A DNA stretch of 64,000 nt from the NCBI GenBank assembly GCA_038887515.1, contig JAWAKK010000001.1, positions 64,001 through 128,000 of the forward strand, given 5' to 3'. Below are positions 47,846 through 53,100 of this stretch, in pieces (position 1 is the first letter of the stretch; every line of letters begins with the position of its first letter). This DNA comes from Candidatus Nezhaarchaeales archaeon (lineage in GTDB: Archaea > Thermoproteota > Methanomethylicia > Nezhaarchaeales > WYZ-LMO8). The notes beneath the pieces are model-generated. The model did not search any database and had not been told where the DNA came from. It was given only the letters and a program-made list of their open reading frames with translations. The translations under genes were made by a program, and so were the position numbers.

Positions 47846-48502
47846 GTGAGCAATATGTCTATAACAATAGCTTGGCATGGGCACGCCTGCTTTGAAATTA
47901 AAAACCACGTAACGATAGTGGTAGACCCTCATGATGGTACATCCATTGGGATAAAACCCCCGTCGGCTAAGGCTGACTTAGTCTTGATATCTCATAAACA
48001 CTTCGATCATGCTAATGGCTTAATGTTTGTCAAGAAAAATGGCACCGTAGTAATAGATAAGCCGGGTAATTATGAAGTCAAGGGAGTGAAAGTGGTGGGG
48101 ATACCCACCTATCACGATGAATGTCGAGGAGCTAAACGTGGATTAAATACAGTTTACCTCTTTGAATATGATGAAGTTAGGTTCTGTCATTTAGGCGACT
48201 TGGGGCATGTGTTAAGTGAAGATCAAGCCCGTTTCTTAAGACCAGTAGACGTCCTCATGATTCCTGTCGGAGGAACCTTTACTATAGACGCAAAGCAAGC
48301 TAATGAAATTATGAACTTACTATCACCGAGAATAGCAATACCGATGCACTATAAGACGCCTGGACTAAATCTACCGATAGTTGGCGTTGAAGGTTTTATT
48401 GCTGGAAAGACGAATGTAGAACGCTCACAGTCAAATACATACAGGGTATCTAAAGAGACTCTGCCTAGTAAGTTAAAAATAGTTGTGTTAAGTCCACTGT
48501 AA
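47846..48502 (+). CDS. MBL-fold Zn-dependent hydrolase (COG2220-like)
   Basis: WHGHACF, DP, SHKHFDH, HLGDLGH, IPVGG, IPMHY. Confidence 0.85.
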   Translation: MSNMSITIAWHGHACFEIKNHVTIVVDPHDGTSIGIKPPSAKADLVLISHKHFDHANGLMFVKKNGTVVIDKPGNYEVKGVKVVGIPTYHDECRGAKRGLNTVYLFEYDEVRFCHLGDLGHVLSEDQARFLRPVDVLMIPVGGTFTIDAKQANEIMNLLSPRIAIPMHYKTPGLNLPIVGVEGFIAGKTNVERSQSNTYRVSKETLPSKLKIVVLSPL

Positions 48503-48643
48503 CCGACTTAAGTCTCTTATGTGATGTGACTCTTAGGGGATCTAGTGCATGGTCTTTGGGCTAACGTGTTTCATAAAGGTTGCCACAAGAATTTCTCGAA
48601 CCTCAATAACCGAAGATGGTTCAGAAGAAGTGCGAGTTGATGC

Positions 48644-48961
48644 ATGTTGTCGACCATAATAATATCGCCTGAATTCGATATAATACTCGATCCTGAAAAT
48701 ATGGTGATAGGTGAAGCTAGAAGCGACTTAGCTTTACTAGACGTTACGCCCATAGACAAGAAGATTGGCGAGCTCAATGACATAATAGATGTACTGTTCT
48801 GGTCTTTCGATCCAAAAGTATCGACTTCAACGACGCCTAGATCCGGGAAAAGGGGGTTGCCGTTAAAGGTTTACTACTTGCCAGACATGATACTAGGCTT
48901 CCTCGTAGGCTTAGCGCTGTTCAGCCTAATAATAGCGATGCACTTTACATTAACTCTATGA
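48644..48961 (+). CDS. mtrB: Tetrahydromethanopterin S-methyltransferase subunit B
   Basis: I.PEF.I.LDP...VIG, I.EL....D.L..S.DP, G..G, C-terminal TM GFLVG; directly upstream of mtrA. Confidence 0.75.
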   Translation: MLSTIIISPEFDIILDPENMVIGEARSDLALLDVTPIDKKIGELNDIIDVLFWSFDPKVSTSTTPRSGKRGLPLKVYYLPDMILGFLVGLALFSLIIAMHFTLTL

Positions 48962-48994: not shown

Positions 48995-49768
48995 ATGTTC
49001 GTGAGAACCCTTCAAAAAATGAAAGTTGAGCTGGCACCAAATTGGCCCGTAGCGGTTGGAGACTACGTAGTTGGAGATCCTAAAGGTTGTGTTGCGATAT
49101 GTACGTTGGGGTCTGAAGGGATATGCTCATTCCTAGTAAAAATGCCGGGAGTCGCAATAGTTGGACCTTGTAAAACTGAGAACGTAGGTTTAGAGAAAAT
49201 AATATTAAACGTAATATCAAATCCAAACATTAGGTTTTTAATAGTATGCGGAATCGAAGTTACAGGCCACTTACCAGGTCTCTCCTTTAAAGCTCTTTAC
49301 GAAAACGGCATAGAGCCGGCAACTAAGAGAATCAAGGAAGCACCTGGAGCAATACCTTATATAGAACACTTGACCGTTGAAGCTGTGGAACGTTTTCAAA
49401 AACAGGTACAATTTATAGACATGATAGGGGTTGAAGACATAAACATAATTAAAGCTAAAGTCGAAGAACTCGTAACACAAGATCCAGGAGCTTACCCTGA
49501 GCCTCCATTTATCGTAGATATCGAGAAAAAAGAGACGAGAGAAACCACTATACCTAAGTTAATTTTGGTTCCATCAATCACACCATCACTGTCAACCCTA
49601 TCGGCATTAATGAGTGACGTAAAGCGTAGAGTGCAATTAATAGAAAGAGAAAGGAAAATTATAACTGCTGTAGAAGTTACAAGAGCTTGGAGTATAGTAG
49701 CGGGGATATTACTTGCCTTCTTGCTCTTTGGTCTACTAGCACTTGTAGTGATTTTAGGAGGAACATAA
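48995..49768 (+). CDS. mtrA: MtrA corrinoid domain fused to an MtrF-type membrane tail
   Basis: WP...GDY.VG, CTLGS, CKTENVGLEK, NPNIRF, EVTGH (His ligand, codon 49268-49270), GAIPY, RFQ.QV, DPGA. Tail DVKRRVQLIER.RKI..AV..TR matches the MtrF pattern. Confidence 0.9.
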   Translation: MFVRTLQKMKVELAPNWPVAVGDYVVGDPKGCVAICTLGSEGICSFLVKMPGVAIVGPCKTENVGLEKIILNVISNPNIRFLIVCGIEVTGHLPGLSFKALYENGIEPATKRIKEAPGAIPYIEHLTVEAVERFQKQVQFIDMIGVEDINIIKAKVEELVTQDPGAYPEPPFIVDIEKKETRETTIPKLILVPSITPSLSTLSALMSDVKRRVQLIERERKIITAVEVTRAWSIVAGILLAFLLFGLLALVVILGGT

Positions 49769-49769
49769 A

Positions 49770-49973
49770 GTGTCTTCCAAAAGAACCAAGGAAGCGTATA
49801 CAGCTGAAATTGCTTACATCGAAGCTAGAATTAACGATATAACGACGAGAATACAAATGATCGGAGAGAAAGGTAGGTTCACCACGGGGTTTTATCGGGG
49901 CTTCTTTAAAGGCTTCATAATTGGATTGATGGTATCGATAGTGTTACTAACATCAATATTGATAGTTATGTGA
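49770..49973 (+). CDS. Stand-alone MtrA-type C-terminal stalk helix/membrane anchor (sits at the mtrF position)
   Basis: EIA.IEARI..I..RI..IG....F..G.Y.G...G..IGL matches the remembered MtrA C-terminus; single TM helix; GTG start 1 nt after the previous stop. Confidence 0.7.
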   Translation: MSSKRTKEAYTAEIAYIEARINDITTRIQMIGEKGRFTTGFYRGFFKGFIIGLMVSIVLLTSILIVM

Positions 49974-49988: not shown

Positions 49989-50216
49989 ATGTCGCTCGAT
50001 GAGGAAGAATTTAGAGTACCGACAGTTATAGCTCCACCGGAAATCGTTCAACTACATTCAAAGCTTAATGCAATAAACGAAAAAGTGAACTTCACGCTCA
50101 GCGAAGTAGCTCACAAAGAAGGTCTAAGAATGGGTAGCTATATAGGTTTCCTTTACGGTTTCTTAACAGGCTCTATGATAATGTTAGTACTTAAGTTTGT
50201 ACTTAGGATCCTGTGA
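49989..50216 (+). CDS. mtrG: Tetrahydromethanopterin S-methyltransferase subunit G
   Basis: VP.V, KL..I.EKV.FT..E.....G...G..IG.LYG...G. Confidence 0.85.
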   Translation: MSLDEEEFRVPTVIAPPEIVQLHSKLNAINEKVNFTLSEVAHKEGLRMGSYIGFLYGFLTGSMIMLVLKFVLRIL

Positions 50217-50257: not shown

Positions 50258-51763
50258 TCATTCCTCGCATTCGTTTCTTGTCGAACTTTCATTACTACGC
50301 TTAACTTTACGCTCCAGTTTTTGAAACTTTGCCCTTAAGCTCAATATACAGCCCATCCCCCTATTACCTCCTAGAGGATTCTGCGGCGTCCCCAAGGAAT
50401 GTAAACACCTAGCCATTACATTAGCCCCCAAGGCTAAGCCGTCTTCAACGAACACGACTCTTCTATTGACGTCGTCGTTAAATACGCCAAGCTCGTCAAC
50501 ATACTTAAGTATTAAGTAAGGCTTTAGACCTGTTATTCCTGCCCTTCCAGTTATACCTATGGTGTAATTATCATTTATTAAACCGTGCGCTATTAAGGTC
50601 TCCAGGACTCTTTTAGCTATAAGAGCTGAAGTATAATCCAGTATCGCTAAGAGCGTCTTGCCTCCATATTGACTGTAGAACTCGTGACCTAGTGACCGCA
50701 ATTTAGGTAAGTAACTTCCATTATCCCCTACATCGCATCCTATCAGTAATACTCCTTGCTCGCACGCTAACTTTGCATTAATGGGTATCATGCCCACGCG
50801 TACTGCACTTGGAAGGACTTTCCTTACGTCTATGTACTTATGCACTTCATAAGCTAATTCCTCGCACTTCTCAGCATCTATGACGTCTTTGGTCTTAATG
50901 TACTCTGAAAACTCTAAAGCTGACGTCGCGACTTCGGTACCTTGAATTAAAGCATCACAAATAGCTCCAGAGAGACCACATATACTGCCTATAGTCTTGG
51001 CGTAAGGAAGTTCATCATTTGTAACCCTTCCTTTAAAGGTAGTCCCAAAATCCATGGATATTATAGGGTTTCTACAATCTACATCAGTCCACTTAGCTCC
51101 AACCTTTATACCGGCAGTCGAAAGCTCAGCTTCCATCTCATTTGCCATTATCTCACCTCCACTCTTGGGAGGTAGGCAGCCAGCAATCGCTCCATCAAAA
51201 AAGACTACATCAAGTTTTGAATATTCTTTTAAATCATCTGGAAGAGAGTTCTTAGATAAAGGTGCTATCATTTTTGACGGACTTATACCAGCTGCCAGAC
51301 AACCCTTGGCTAATGCCCTTATAACCGAGCCGACTTCTTCTGGTGTTCCAAAGCTAGCGCTAATACCTGTTGATTGCACTACAAAATGTAAATCTTTATC
51401 CCTATCTAGTCCAGCTTCCCTAACGCAAGATACGAGGAAATCCCTGATAAACTCGATTACTGCCATTTCGCTTAGCATCTTCCCCCACAAGGTATAGCCT
51501 AGTAAGCGCTCGTTGGGGTGGGGTCTTCTGATGTTTCGTGTTAGTTCGACTGCCCTCCTTACTAGGTAAATTTTTCCAGTTTTTAAATCAGTAGTAGTTA
51601 TGATGCACTTAGTAGTGGTGTTGCCAAGCTCAATTGATGCGACAGTGAAGAGTTGCCCAGTCCCTCTAGTTGTTACTTTCACAGGATCAATGAACATGCC
51701 GCGCGCAATTCTAGGGTTATACTTGCCGATTTTACCCTTTCTCTTTAAAAATTTAAGCCTCAT
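50258..51763 (-). CDS. Methanogenesis marker protein 14 (DUF2114-like)
   Basis: VASIELGNTTTKCI, DLHFVV.STG, ANEME.EL.TAGIK, D.RNP..S.DFGTT..GR, GITGRAGITG.KP, FVEDGLA.GA..MARC..SLGTP.NP.GG; downstream of mtrH. Confidence 0.85.
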   Translation of the reverse strand: MRLKFLKRKGKIGKYNPRIARGMFIDPVKVTTRGTGQLFTVASIELGNTTTKCIITTTDLKTGKIYLVRRAVELTRNIRRPHPNERLLGYTLWGKMLSEMAVIEFIRDFLVSCVREAGLDRDKDLHFVVQSTGISASFGTPEEVGSVIRALAKGCLAAGISPSKMIAPLSKNSLPDDLKEYSKLDVVFFDGAIAGCLPPKSGGEIMANEMEAELSTAGIKVGAKWTDVDCRNPIISMDFGTTFKGRVTNDELPYAKTIGSICGLSGAICDALIQGTEVATSALEFSEYIKTKDVIDAEKCEELAYEVHKYIDVRKVLPSAVRVGMIPINAKLACEQGVLLIGCDVGDNGSYLPKLRSLGHEFYSQYGGKTLLAILDYTSALIAKRVLETLIAHGLINDNYTIGITGRAGITGLKPYLILKYVDELGVFNDDVNRRVVFVEDGLALGANVMARCLHSLGTPQNPLGGNRGMGCILSLRAKFQKLERKVKRSNESSTRNECEE

Positions 51764-51767
51764 AGTT

Positions 51768-52715
51768 TTAGCCTACAAGTCTTCGATATGGATGATCTTC
51801 ACTTATGGGGAGTCCAAGCTCAAGGTGGGTTGTATCCGTCACAATAGCGTCAGCCATGGCTACTACTGGAAAAACGAATTCTGCATTCTCTATGGGTCCA
51901 TAGAGTACGAAGTTGCCACCGATAATTACTTGAAGGATGTTGCTAGCTATATCGCAGAATCTAAATATCTCTCTACCTCGGGGATGCTCTTTCTTAATTC
52001 TCTTAAGCCACGGCCAGGCCGATATAACGTTATGTAAACTGCTCCCTGTCGGGTAACCGAACTTTGACTTAATGACATACGTTGATGCTAGGGCAGCTCC
52101 TGCACCAGCTCCTAAAGTAGTTACTGCGACATCGATCAATGTAGCCTTGACTCCACACTCATTGGCAATATTAAGTAACCCATTTTTAACAACGCCTCCT
52201 CCGCTCGTTAGTATTGTAACCTTACCCCTTATCGAGGGGTCGGCCGGATTAAACGCCAAAATAACGCTATTAGGCATTTTTAGTTCTCTTAGAACATTAA
52301 ACTCTTCTTCAGTTATTGAAACGTTTATTGAGTTATATACGGCTTTATCGATAAGCCCAACCTCTTTGGCATATTTTGCGCCTTCAATCCTAACTCTAGG
52401 TTCTGTAGAATCTATTAGAAATGGAGATGGGGTGACTGATGCTACAAAATCTATGTACTTCTTCATTGCCTCGACGCTTTCGGAGAATATTTGGACCATG
52501 CAAGGGTTACCGGTTATATCGGACATTTCCTCTTGCTTCTTTATTAACGCCTCGGCTTTGTCTTTATCAAAAAGGCCTTTCCTATGGTCACTTACTATTT
52601 TATGTCCTCCATAAAATATTGTTCCAGCTAAGACCGTAGGGTTTTCGCCTGGTTGTCCTCCTATCTTAACTTTCCCTACTTGGTAAACGTACTGCTCTCT
52701 AGCGAATAGATATAT
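51768..52715 (-). CDS. mtrH: Tetrahydromethanopterin S-methyltransferase subunit H (315 aa; apparent ATA start)
   Basis: Frame extends 63 codons upstream of the track's ATG and contains F..EQ.V......KIGGQPGENPTVLAGTIFY..HKIV.D..KG.FD; also FLIDST, YNSIN, HNV.SAW.W, YGPIENA, HP. Confidence 0.9.
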   Translation of the reverse strand: MYLFAREQYVYQVGKVKIGGQPGENPTVLAGTIFYGGHKIVSDHRKGLFDKDKAEALIKKQEEMSDITGNPCMVQIFSESVEAMKKYIDFVASVTPSPFLIDSTEPRVRIEGAKYAKEVGLIDKAVYNSINVSITEEEFNVLRELKMPNSVILAFNPADPSIRGKVTILTSGGGVVKNGLLNIANECGVKATLIDVAVTTLGAGAGAALASTYVIKSKFGYPTGSSLHNVISAWPWLKRIKKEHPRGREIFRFCDIASNILQVIIGGNFVLYGPIENAEFVFPVVAMADAIVTDTTHLELGLPISEDHPYRRLVG

Positions 52716-53100
52716 TGCAATTACACCTCCAACTAGACAACTTCACTTTTAAGATCCAAGTAACTCTTTAAGCTTTACGTGACTTAACAGTAAAGAATGA
52801 TTAGAATAATTGAAAATTAATTTAGAACACTAAGAAGCCACCTTTATCATAGGGGTCCTTCCAGTTAAGAGATTGTAAGGTTGGGAGATGTTATATTTAA
52901 ATTCGAAGTTACACTTCTAACAGATTCAGGTTAAGCGACGTTCCCGTCTAAATCTTGCCGAAGTCATGTAATCAAGGCAACTTTATGGCTTAAACCAAGG
53001 AGCATTGCCTGTCCCTAAATCGCTCTCGCCTTACGTTTATGGTTCCCCCGACAGTCTTATATACCTCTAACGTAAAAAGAATTGAGGGTTTTTACTAAAT

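Follow-up and report, generated by a model that had tools for sequence, protein, structure and literature searches.

Evidence for an exchange of the MtrA and MtrF helices in the methyltransferase stalk encoded by a Nezhaarchaeales archaeon

The DNA analysed here (the window) is a stretch of 64,000 nucleotides (nt) from a Candidatus Nezhaarchaeales archaeon (GenBank assembly GCA_038887515.1, contig JAWAKK010000001.1, positions 64,001 to 128,000), and it carries at 48995-49973 two adjacent genes of the methyltransferase Mtr, encoding proteins of 257 and 67 amino acids (aa). These genes are very probably the two halves of a helix swap in the Mtr stalk, in which the corrinoid-binding domain of MtrA has come to be followed by a helix of the MtrF type, whilst the anchor helix of MtrA is supplied by the small gene. 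To judge from the sequences, the arrangement is inherited rather than new, a clade-wide Thermoproteota-type layout that is common to ANME-1 and Methanoliparia, and the Mtr of this organism would not pump ions. The source genome (1.29 Mb, 94% complete) contains a single MtrA domain. By identity to the 257-aa protein, the nearest named relatives are Ca. Nezhaarchaeota WYZ-LMO8 (72%) and a 'Thermoprotei' metagenome-assembled genome (MAG) from Guaymas (69%). The genes and sites of the locus are as follows.

47846..48502, plus strand: gene for a metallo-β-lactamase (MBL)-fold hydrolase (Pfam Lactamase_B_3, 164.7 bits), the left edge of the site lacking mtrEDC
48644..48961, plus strand: mtrB, stalk helix subunit of 105 aa (PF05440, 44.1 bits; 42.8 bits with our own Methanobacteria model for B)
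48995..49546, plus strand: MtrA corrinoid-binding domain, residues 1-184 of the 257-aa protein (PF04208, TIGR01111)
49547..49768, plus strand: linker and MtrF-type stalk and membrane helix, residues 185-257 of the 257-aa protein (MtrF models, MtrF chain 8q3v_F, our own models)
49757..49761, plus strand: GGAGG, a Shine-Dalgarno-like site for the 67-aa gene, read from the sequence and lying within the last codons of the 257-aa gene
49770..49973, plus strand: stand-alone C-terminal anchor helix of the MtrA type, the putative equivalent of MtrAc, 67 aa with a GTG start (TIGR01111, MtrA chain 8q3v_A, our own models)
49989..50216, plus strand: mtrG, stalk helix subunit of 75 aa (PF04210, 52 bits; TIGR01149, 52.1 bits)
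50258..51763, minus strand: methanogenesis marker 14 (DUF2114; PF09887, 580 bits; TIGR03285, 566.8 bits), adjoining mtrH and in the same position in the WYZ-LMO8 locus
51768..52745, minus strand: mtrH, the methyltransferase subunit acting between methyl-tetrahydromethanopterin (methyl-H4MPT) and the corrinoid (TIGR01114, 321.6 bits for the ATG-started part at 51768-52526)

The TAA stop codon of the 257-aa gene occupies 49766-49768 and the 67-aa gene begins one base later. The GGAGG within the end of the first gene stands 8 nt from the GTG of the second, and probably serves as its ribosome-binding site. For mtrH, an N-terminus of about 66 residues that matches the WYZ-LMO8 protein is encoded in frame upstream of the first ATG (52527-52745, minus strand), in a segment without ATG, GTG or TTG.

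The N-terminal part of the 257-aa protein matches the corrinoid-binding domain of MtrA. PF04208 aligns with residues 11-183 over profile positions 2-172 of 173 (222.3 bits), and the full-length MtrA model TIGR01111 gives 223.8 bits for residues 1-184 alone; the whole protein reaches 239.9 bits with this model, under its cut-off of 249.15. Histidine 92 is invariant in alignments of 11 and 25 rows and is aligned with His84 of a Methanothermobacter-like MtrA (locus L084); His84 of M. marburgensis MtrA is reported to be the residue linked to cobalt (PMC10998594). The remaining 73 residues behave quite differently from an MtrA tail. Scanned alone, they score 41.3 bits with NF009776, 31.7 with TIGR02507 and 37.2 with PF09472, three MtrF models with cut-offs of 64, 25 and 22, so that the latter two cut-offs are passed and the first is not, and they give no match to TIGR01111 at E<=10. 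Comparison with the chains of the solved complexes (8Q3V from M. marburgensis, 9QTQ/9QTP from M. mazei) gave 31.1 bits for the MtrF chain 8q3v_F and 22 for the MtrF chain 9qtp_P, and at the same threshold no MtrA chain of the PDB was matched. We also built four hidden Markov models (HMMs) of our own, for the A tail, F, G and B, trained only on 24 distinct loci of Methanobacteria, the group to which the 8Q3V organism belongs; with these the tail scores 36.6 bits as F and 6.5 as A.

For the 67-aa protein the preference is reversed. It aligns with TIGR01111 positions 184-235 at 39.4 bits, against 28.2, 18.4 and 23.7 bits with the MtrF models NF009776, TIGR02507 and PF09472; the first two of these scores fall short of the cut-offs (64 and 25), and the MtrA model scores higher than any of the three. 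Amongst the solved chains, MtrA is preferred (8q3v_A residues 184-233, 31.2 bits; 9qtq_A, 24.2) over MtrF (8q3v_F, 18.9; 9qtp_P, 14.7), and our own HMMs give 49.1 bits for A and 22.4 for F. The margin of one type over the other is thus about 27-30 bits for both helices of the window. At the residues that form layers on the threefold axis of 8Q3V (P185, A188, A192, N196, T199 and M203), the 67-aa protein has A, A, A, D, T and M, judged by eye, with four of the six identical; amongst 60 small genes from loci of the same layout, A188 is present in 55, A192 in 56 and D at position 196 in 57, and positions 199 and 203 are variable, as they also are in canonical tails. Two further analyses have little bearing on helix type. 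A search of protein representatives with the 67-aa protein returned six matches at E<=0.001, four of 67-72 aa and two unrelated ones of about 480 aa, which are too few for typing, and a prediction of the four-chain complex with alignments (MtrB 28-105, tail 188-257, MtrG and the 67-aa partner) scored 0.06 against a mark of 0.32 and weighs neither way.

These results bear out the core of the initial annotation, which had been made from the letters of the window. The two open reading frames lie exactly at 48995-49768 and 49770-49973, and the proposed typing, with an MtrF-like tail on the large protein and an MtrA C-terminus in the small one, is reproduced by curated profiles, solved chains and our own HMMs alike. 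The separate scans that it had called for gave MtrA for the small protein and MtrF for the tail, the opposite of the pattern that it had named as fatal. Its statement that the fusion is the only corrinoid domain of the window extends to the whole genome. It had also foreseen that automated pipelines would label the pair as ordinary subunits, and indeed NCBI records give the name 'subunit F' to relatives of the small protein and 'subunit A' to relatives of the large one, in whose cluster a 120-aa member appears as 'subunit F, partial'.

To place the locus in context, mtrA loci were gathered from the phylum of the window, from Methanococci, Methanobacteria and Halobacteriota, and from the best 80 of 589 candidate stretches in contigs of one genome per species. 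Removal of repeats left 185 distinct loci, and each helix was typed with the Methanobacteria HMMs. The canonical order (mtrB, A domain with A helix, F, G) was found in 91 loci, 29 from Methanobacteria and 62 from outside, and 12 of the loci with an A domain on an A helix carry a second A domain on G. The order seen in the window (mtrB, A domain with F helix, A-type small gene, G) was found in 62 loci: 15 from Thermoproteota and 47 from ANME-1/Methanophagales, Methanoliparia, Ca. Methanoxibalbensis and some MAGs labelled Methanosarcinales. In one further locus (L150) the small gene is tied between A and F. Methanococci account for 11 loci with a full mtrA plus an A-F fusion, seven (Methanothermococcus) with an anchor-only gene followed by an A-F fusion, and two with an A-F fusion and no anchor nearby; the last 11 loci, of various origins, are MtrA-domain homologues without a typed helix together with one partial locus. 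All 15 Thermoproteota loci with this operon share the swapped order, under labels of the Nezha-, Bathyarchaeia-, Hecatellales- and Methanomethylicia type. The arrangement is not special to the window; a whole large clade has it as its normal layout.

The scores across these loci separate the two types in both directions. Outside Methanobacteria, the tails of the 62 canonical loci score as A with margins of 19-53 bits and their small genes as F with margins of 14-48 bits. For Thermoproteota (15 loci) the assignment is reversed, the tail scoring as F with a margin of 4-40 bits (median 29) and the small gene as A with one of 15-40 bits (median 28), and in the 47 loci of ANME-1, Methanoliparia and their allies the tail is F by 24-37 bits. 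Residues characteristic of each type follow the helix rather than the gene position. All 82 canonical tails have the A-type glycines G213 and G225; of the 60 swapped small genes, 59 have the former and all 60 the latter. Of the F-type residues (numbered as in the L084 MtrF), P8, R29, G44 and G48 are found in 77, 89, 88 and 89 of 89 canonical MtrF sequences; the 60 swapped tails have P8 in 60, Y22 in 52, R29 in 57, G44 in 59 and G48 in 60. The tether that connects the domain to its helix is of ordinary length. Counted from the DPGA motif up to where the membrane helix begins, its median length is 58 residues among 60 swapped proteins (the window has 59) and 59 among 100 canonical ones, and the acidic fraction of the linker is 0.20 in swapped and 0.33 in canonical proteins.

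In a tree of 163 helix units (66 columns), a branch with an SH-aLRT (Shimodaira-Hasegawa-like approximate likelihood ratio test) support of 99 separates 74 A-type rows (36 from canonical tails, 27 from swapped small genes and 11 from Methanococci units) from every F-type row. Three constrained topologies were compared by full IQ-TREE searches: orthology by helix type, the small gene joined with the tail, and orthology by position. Orthology by type was best throughout. With 88 rows (22 per group), joining small gene and tail was 35.1 log-likelihood (lnL) units worse (approximately unbiased, AU, test, p-AU 0.012) and orthology by position 33.7 worse (p-AU 0.018); with all 163 rows the corresponding values were 35.5 (p-AU 0.099) and 28.4 (p-AU 0.22). 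The trees favour a swap without settling the matter, and it is the profile and pairwise scores that carry the main weight. In a tree of the MtrA domain (116 rows), one clade (support 99) is made up of the 15 Thermoproteota rows and another (84) of 40 ANME-1/Methanoliparia rows, each uniformly swapped. A single origin of the swap is possible, and this tree leaves the relation between the two clades unsettled.

The genome has, moreover, lost mtrEDC and mcrA. No match to MtrE, MtrD or MtrC (PF04211, PF04207, PF04206) was found at E<=1 in the 94%-complete genome, and none to McrA. In WYZ-LMO8 (L003) the hydrolase gene is followed by mtrE, mtrD, mtrC and mtrB; here and in four sister species (L022-L025), mtrB comes directly after the hydrolase gene, and the gap in the window spans only 48503-48643. 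Of the genomes in the genus, two have McrA as well as MtrE and five, including this one, have neither (completeness 69-94%). A complete Na+-translocating Mtr complex is therefore not encoded in this genome, and with mtrE, mtrD and mtrC gone the stalk cannot serve a sodium pump. The same losses have been described: three species clusters of Methanonezhaarchaeceae without MtrCDE belong to lineages that lost methyl-coenzyme M reductase (MCR), and the loss of MtrCDE is viewed as a possible intermediate stage on the way to losing methanogenesis (Sci Adv 2025, PMC12700198). The genome studied here fits these clusters, having no MtrE, MtrD, MtrC or McrA and retaining mtrA, mtrB, mtrG and mtrH. We also observed that methanogenesis marker 14 is retained beside mtrH in a genome without MCR.

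The genes that remain are intact, the mtrB, A-F, Ac and G genes all being present in five species-level genomes without mtrEDC. The ratio of non-synonymous to synonymous substitution (dN/dS), estimated by the Nei-Gojobori method, was compared between these species and one pair of relatives with mtrE and mcrA (L003 and L018); synonymous divergence (dS) is saturated in several pairs, which makes the values rough, and they are 0.07-0.12 against 0.04 in the pair for the corrinoid domain, 0.16-0.19 against 0.16 for the A-type gene, 0.23-0.32 against 0.05 for mtrG, 0.24-0.46 against 0.12 for the F-type tail and 0.29-0.55 against 0.20 for mtrB. Purifying selection persists, and it is relaxed except on the A-type gene; B and F, which touch MtrE in 8Q3V, are amongst the relaxed helices. 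Their HMM scores are also lower: in the five mtrEDC-less species B scores 32-43 bits and the F-type tail 17-51, whereas in four relatives with mtrC or MtrE in the locus or genome B scores 72-76 in three (the fourth is cut at a contig end) and F 43-56. The lower scores, together with the changes at Y22 and G44 described below, fit a relaxed constraint on the helices that would have touched MtrE.

How might such a stalk be built? In 8Q3V, the core of the cytoplasmic stalk is a bundle of three MtrAc helices (residues 178-238) on the threefold axis, surrounded by MtrB, MtrF and MtrG; MtrA and MtrF are joined through their N-terminal segments in a short beta-sheet, and a disordered linker carries the corrinoid domain (PMC10998594). 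In the swapped enzymes the 257-aa protein would consist of the cobamide-carrying domain of MtrA, a linker of ordinary length and an MtrF-type helix, the 67-aa protein would be MtrAc, and the stalk would still assemble with all four helix types (A, B, F and G), each represented once. The attachment of the cobamide arm would have moved from the central helix to its neighbour. Pairing in the beta-sheet puts the two points of attachment side by side, and the foot of the linker may have shifted no further than to the adjoining strand. The A-type helix would have been retained because it is the core of the trimer, which fits its presence in the 62 swapped and seven Methanothermococcus-type loci. In this genome the remaining mtrB, A-F, Ac and G products and MtrH most likely act as a membrane-anchored methyl-H4MPT:cob(I)amide methyltransferase without sodium pumping. 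The initial annotation had proposed that the cobamide arm can move while the helices stay, and the survey agrees, since all 62 swapped loci retain B, F-type, A-type and G helices and the tether has kept its length. Its stronger proposal, that all four helices are required, is not borne out in full, there being one possible exception, a Methanococci genome discussed below.

A different account is implicit in the published description of this operon. PMC9982363 writes it as EDCB[AF]FGH, as if a second copy of mtrF had become joined to mtrA and the original mtrF were the small gene, which would give a stalk with two F-type helices and none of the A type. The small gene does stand in the position of mtrF, it is named 'subunit F' by NCBI, and at 23.7 bits it exceeds the Pfam MtrF threshold of 22. 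Yet it prefers A over F in every pair of scores from the same source (39.4 and 28.2; 31.2 and 18.9; 24.2 and 14.7; 49.1 and 22.4), the topology joining it with the tail loses 35 lnL units with either data set and fails the AU test on 88 rows, and the stalk would lose the very helix that forms its trimeric core in 8Q3V; we regard a duplication of mtrF as improbable. Alternatively, the tail could be the true MtrA anchor and the small gene the true MtrF, each having drifted to the consensus of the other by chance or co-evolution. In its favour, the A and F helices are related and short, and the by-position topology is tolerated on 163 rows. It would, however, need to account for reciprocal margins of 27-30 bits in the window, with medians of 28-29 across the 15 Thermoproteota loci, for type-specific residues kept in 57-60 of 60 sequences, and for a topology that is 28-34 lnL units worse and rejected on 88 rows; drift of both genes in opposite directions across 62 loci would be unparsimonious, and we consider it very unlikely indeed.

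The exchange of helices itself has several points to answer. The 67-aa protein clears the Pfam MtrF cut-off, as noted. The F-type helix of the window (49574-49768), by pairwise alignment to the solved MtrF chain, has R in place of Y22 and S in place of G44. In the 47 loci of ANME-1, Methanoliparia and allied lineages the small gene is typed as A over F by only 2-19 bits (median 12), and in L150 the two types are tied. With 66 aligned columns the helices are short, and the two types themselves resemble each other; on 163 rows the AU test rejects neither rival topology at 0.05, and quick AU tests on the same rows rejected neither (p 0.41 for the small gene joined with the tail, 0.49 by position). 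The constrained trees in these quick tests lay only 5.5 and 0.3 lnL units below a quickly searched free tree, and the comparison was therefore repeated with the full searches reported above. The saturation of dS belongs in the same list. For this genome alone there is also the view that mtrB, A-F, Ac and G are a functionless, decaying remnant left after the loss of mcr and mtrEDC. The absence of MtrE, MtrD, MtrC and McrA, the intermediate stage envisaged in PMC12700198, the lower B and F-tail scores of the five mtrEDC-less species and the altered Y22 and G44 are all in keeping with decay, but the four genes are intact in five species-level genomes, dN/dS is well under 1 (0.07-0.12 for the domain, 0.16-0.55 for the helices), and mtrH and marker 14 are retained next door, so that decay appears rather unlikely. 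A helix swap in a stalk that is still maintained is the account we prefer.

The fusion half of this arrangement is already in the literature. The TACK-type operon EDCB[AF]FGH has been reported with its fusion and distribution, the small gene being read as mtrF, and was used to support a transfer from TACK (PNAS Nexus 2023, PMC9982363). It resembles the window in occurring in the same lineages (TACK, Methanoliparia and ANME-1) and in placing an MtrF-type helix on MtrA, followed by a small helix gene and mtrG. It differs in that the paper takes the fused helix for a duplicate, whereas here the small gene types as an MtrA anchor, and the window also lacks mtrE, mtrD and mtrC. Fusions of a different context were described as mtrA-2a, an MtrA-MtrF fusion found beside a full mtrA in Methanococcales and Methanocella arvoryzae, with A-G fusions in Methanomicrobiales (G3 2015, PMC4632066). 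They share with the window a corrinoid domain on an MtrF-type helix (11 such loci in our set), but there a full-length mtrA-1 with its anchor stands upstream and two corrinoid domains are encoded, whereas the window has one domain and a separate A-type anchor downstream. The initial annotation had placed MtrA-MtrF fusions in both Methanococcales and Methanomicrobiales; the former is right, and the latter carry A-G fusions rather than A-F ones, as in the 12 loci counted above. In comparison with canonical MtrA and MtrF (8Q3V, 9QTQ/9QTP), the window has the same helix types and tether length; in the canonical complexes it is the central MtrAc helix that bears the corrinoid domain, and MtrF stands alone as a subunit of 68-72 aa, which is where the window departs from them.

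What is new is the identification of the small gene as the MtrA anchor, and hence a swap and not a duplication; the fusion half was published in 2023 and the loss of mtrEDC in the family in 2025. A full-text literature search that included PMC9635834, PMC12700198, PMC10998594 and bioRxiv 2021.08.02.454722, with supplements outside its scope that may bear on the point, found no statement to this effect in the text available, and the accessible part of PMC12700198 makes no mention of the nature of the helices, unlike the typing presented here. The correction is in the first place one of labels, as a gene named 'subunit F' is by its sequence the core anchor of MtrA. The stalk to be expected in Thermoproteota, ANME-1 and Methanoliparia would then comprise A, B, F and G helices instead of B, F, F and G, alignments that pair genes by position or name would mix helices that are not orthologous, and structural work on swapped enzymes would be directed to the position of the cobamide arm. 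As a rare genomic change, the swap lends support to the earlier proposal that the Mtr of ANME-1 and Methanoliparia is common to them and the TACK lineages (PMC9982363). For the present genome, it is inherited and ordinary for the clade.

It is tempting to go further and to suppose that the swap happened once, long ago, as a rare genomic change, and that it distinguishes one of two basic forms of Mtr, that of Thermoproteota, ANME-1, Methanoliparia and their allies, as opposed to that of Methanobacteria, Methanococci and most Halobacteriota. We hold this only tentatively and would sooner bet against it. If true, the cobamide arm of one form would hang from a peripheral helix that touches MtrE and not from the central one, which could alter the coupling of methyl transfer to the ion path, and the 'MtrF' genes and 'MtrA' tails of the whole clade would be mis-paired in annotation and in concatenated Mtr trees.

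The Methanococci offer an arrangement of the same parts in the opposite order. In Methanothermococcus (L005:3659-4717 and L008:3593-4726; also L073-L076), mtrB is followed by a gene of 106-127 aa that encodes the end of the linker and the A anchor, then by a gene of 241-244 aa for the A domain with an F helix, and then by mtrG; the anchor gene thus keeps part of the linker, in contrast to that of the window. The simplest derivation of this layout would start from the Methanococcales duplication, with the first domain subsequently lost. Our literature searches, none of which was aimed at this layout, found no paper on it. The two Methanococci loci without a nearby anchor were considered as a test of whether the A-type helix is dispensable, and were dropped as such. 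In one genome (G434) the anchor was found at the end of another contig, indicating an assembly break. The other (G406), a single unverified case, is a one-contig genome with mtrB, an A domain with F helix and mtrG (L057, about 1049651-1050352), and a genome-wide search at E<=1 found no A-type anchor; it represents either an Mtr without an A-type helix or the collapse, during assembly, of nearly identical duplicated domains.

The 257-aa protein carries QDPGA at residues 162-166 (49478-49492), the counterpart of the KDPGA at which Connectase cuts MtrA (PMC7980362). Connectase (PF09894) was entertained as a means of moving the domain between anchors. No gene for it was found in this genome, in any of 15 genomes of the order or in any of five other swapped-type genomes, and this absence is not distinctive, since just 13 of 151 Halobacteriota genomes have one; the idea was dropped.

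Finally, complete archaeal mtr operons were encountered in MAGs labelled Nitrosotalea, Desulfobacteria, Acidiferrales, Bacteroidaceae and Bathyarchaeia (L150, L166, L172, L184, L142 and L155). Their MtrA sequences group with those of ANME-1, Bog-38-like or Methanobrevibacter organisms, and the contigs are probably mis-binned or mislabelled.

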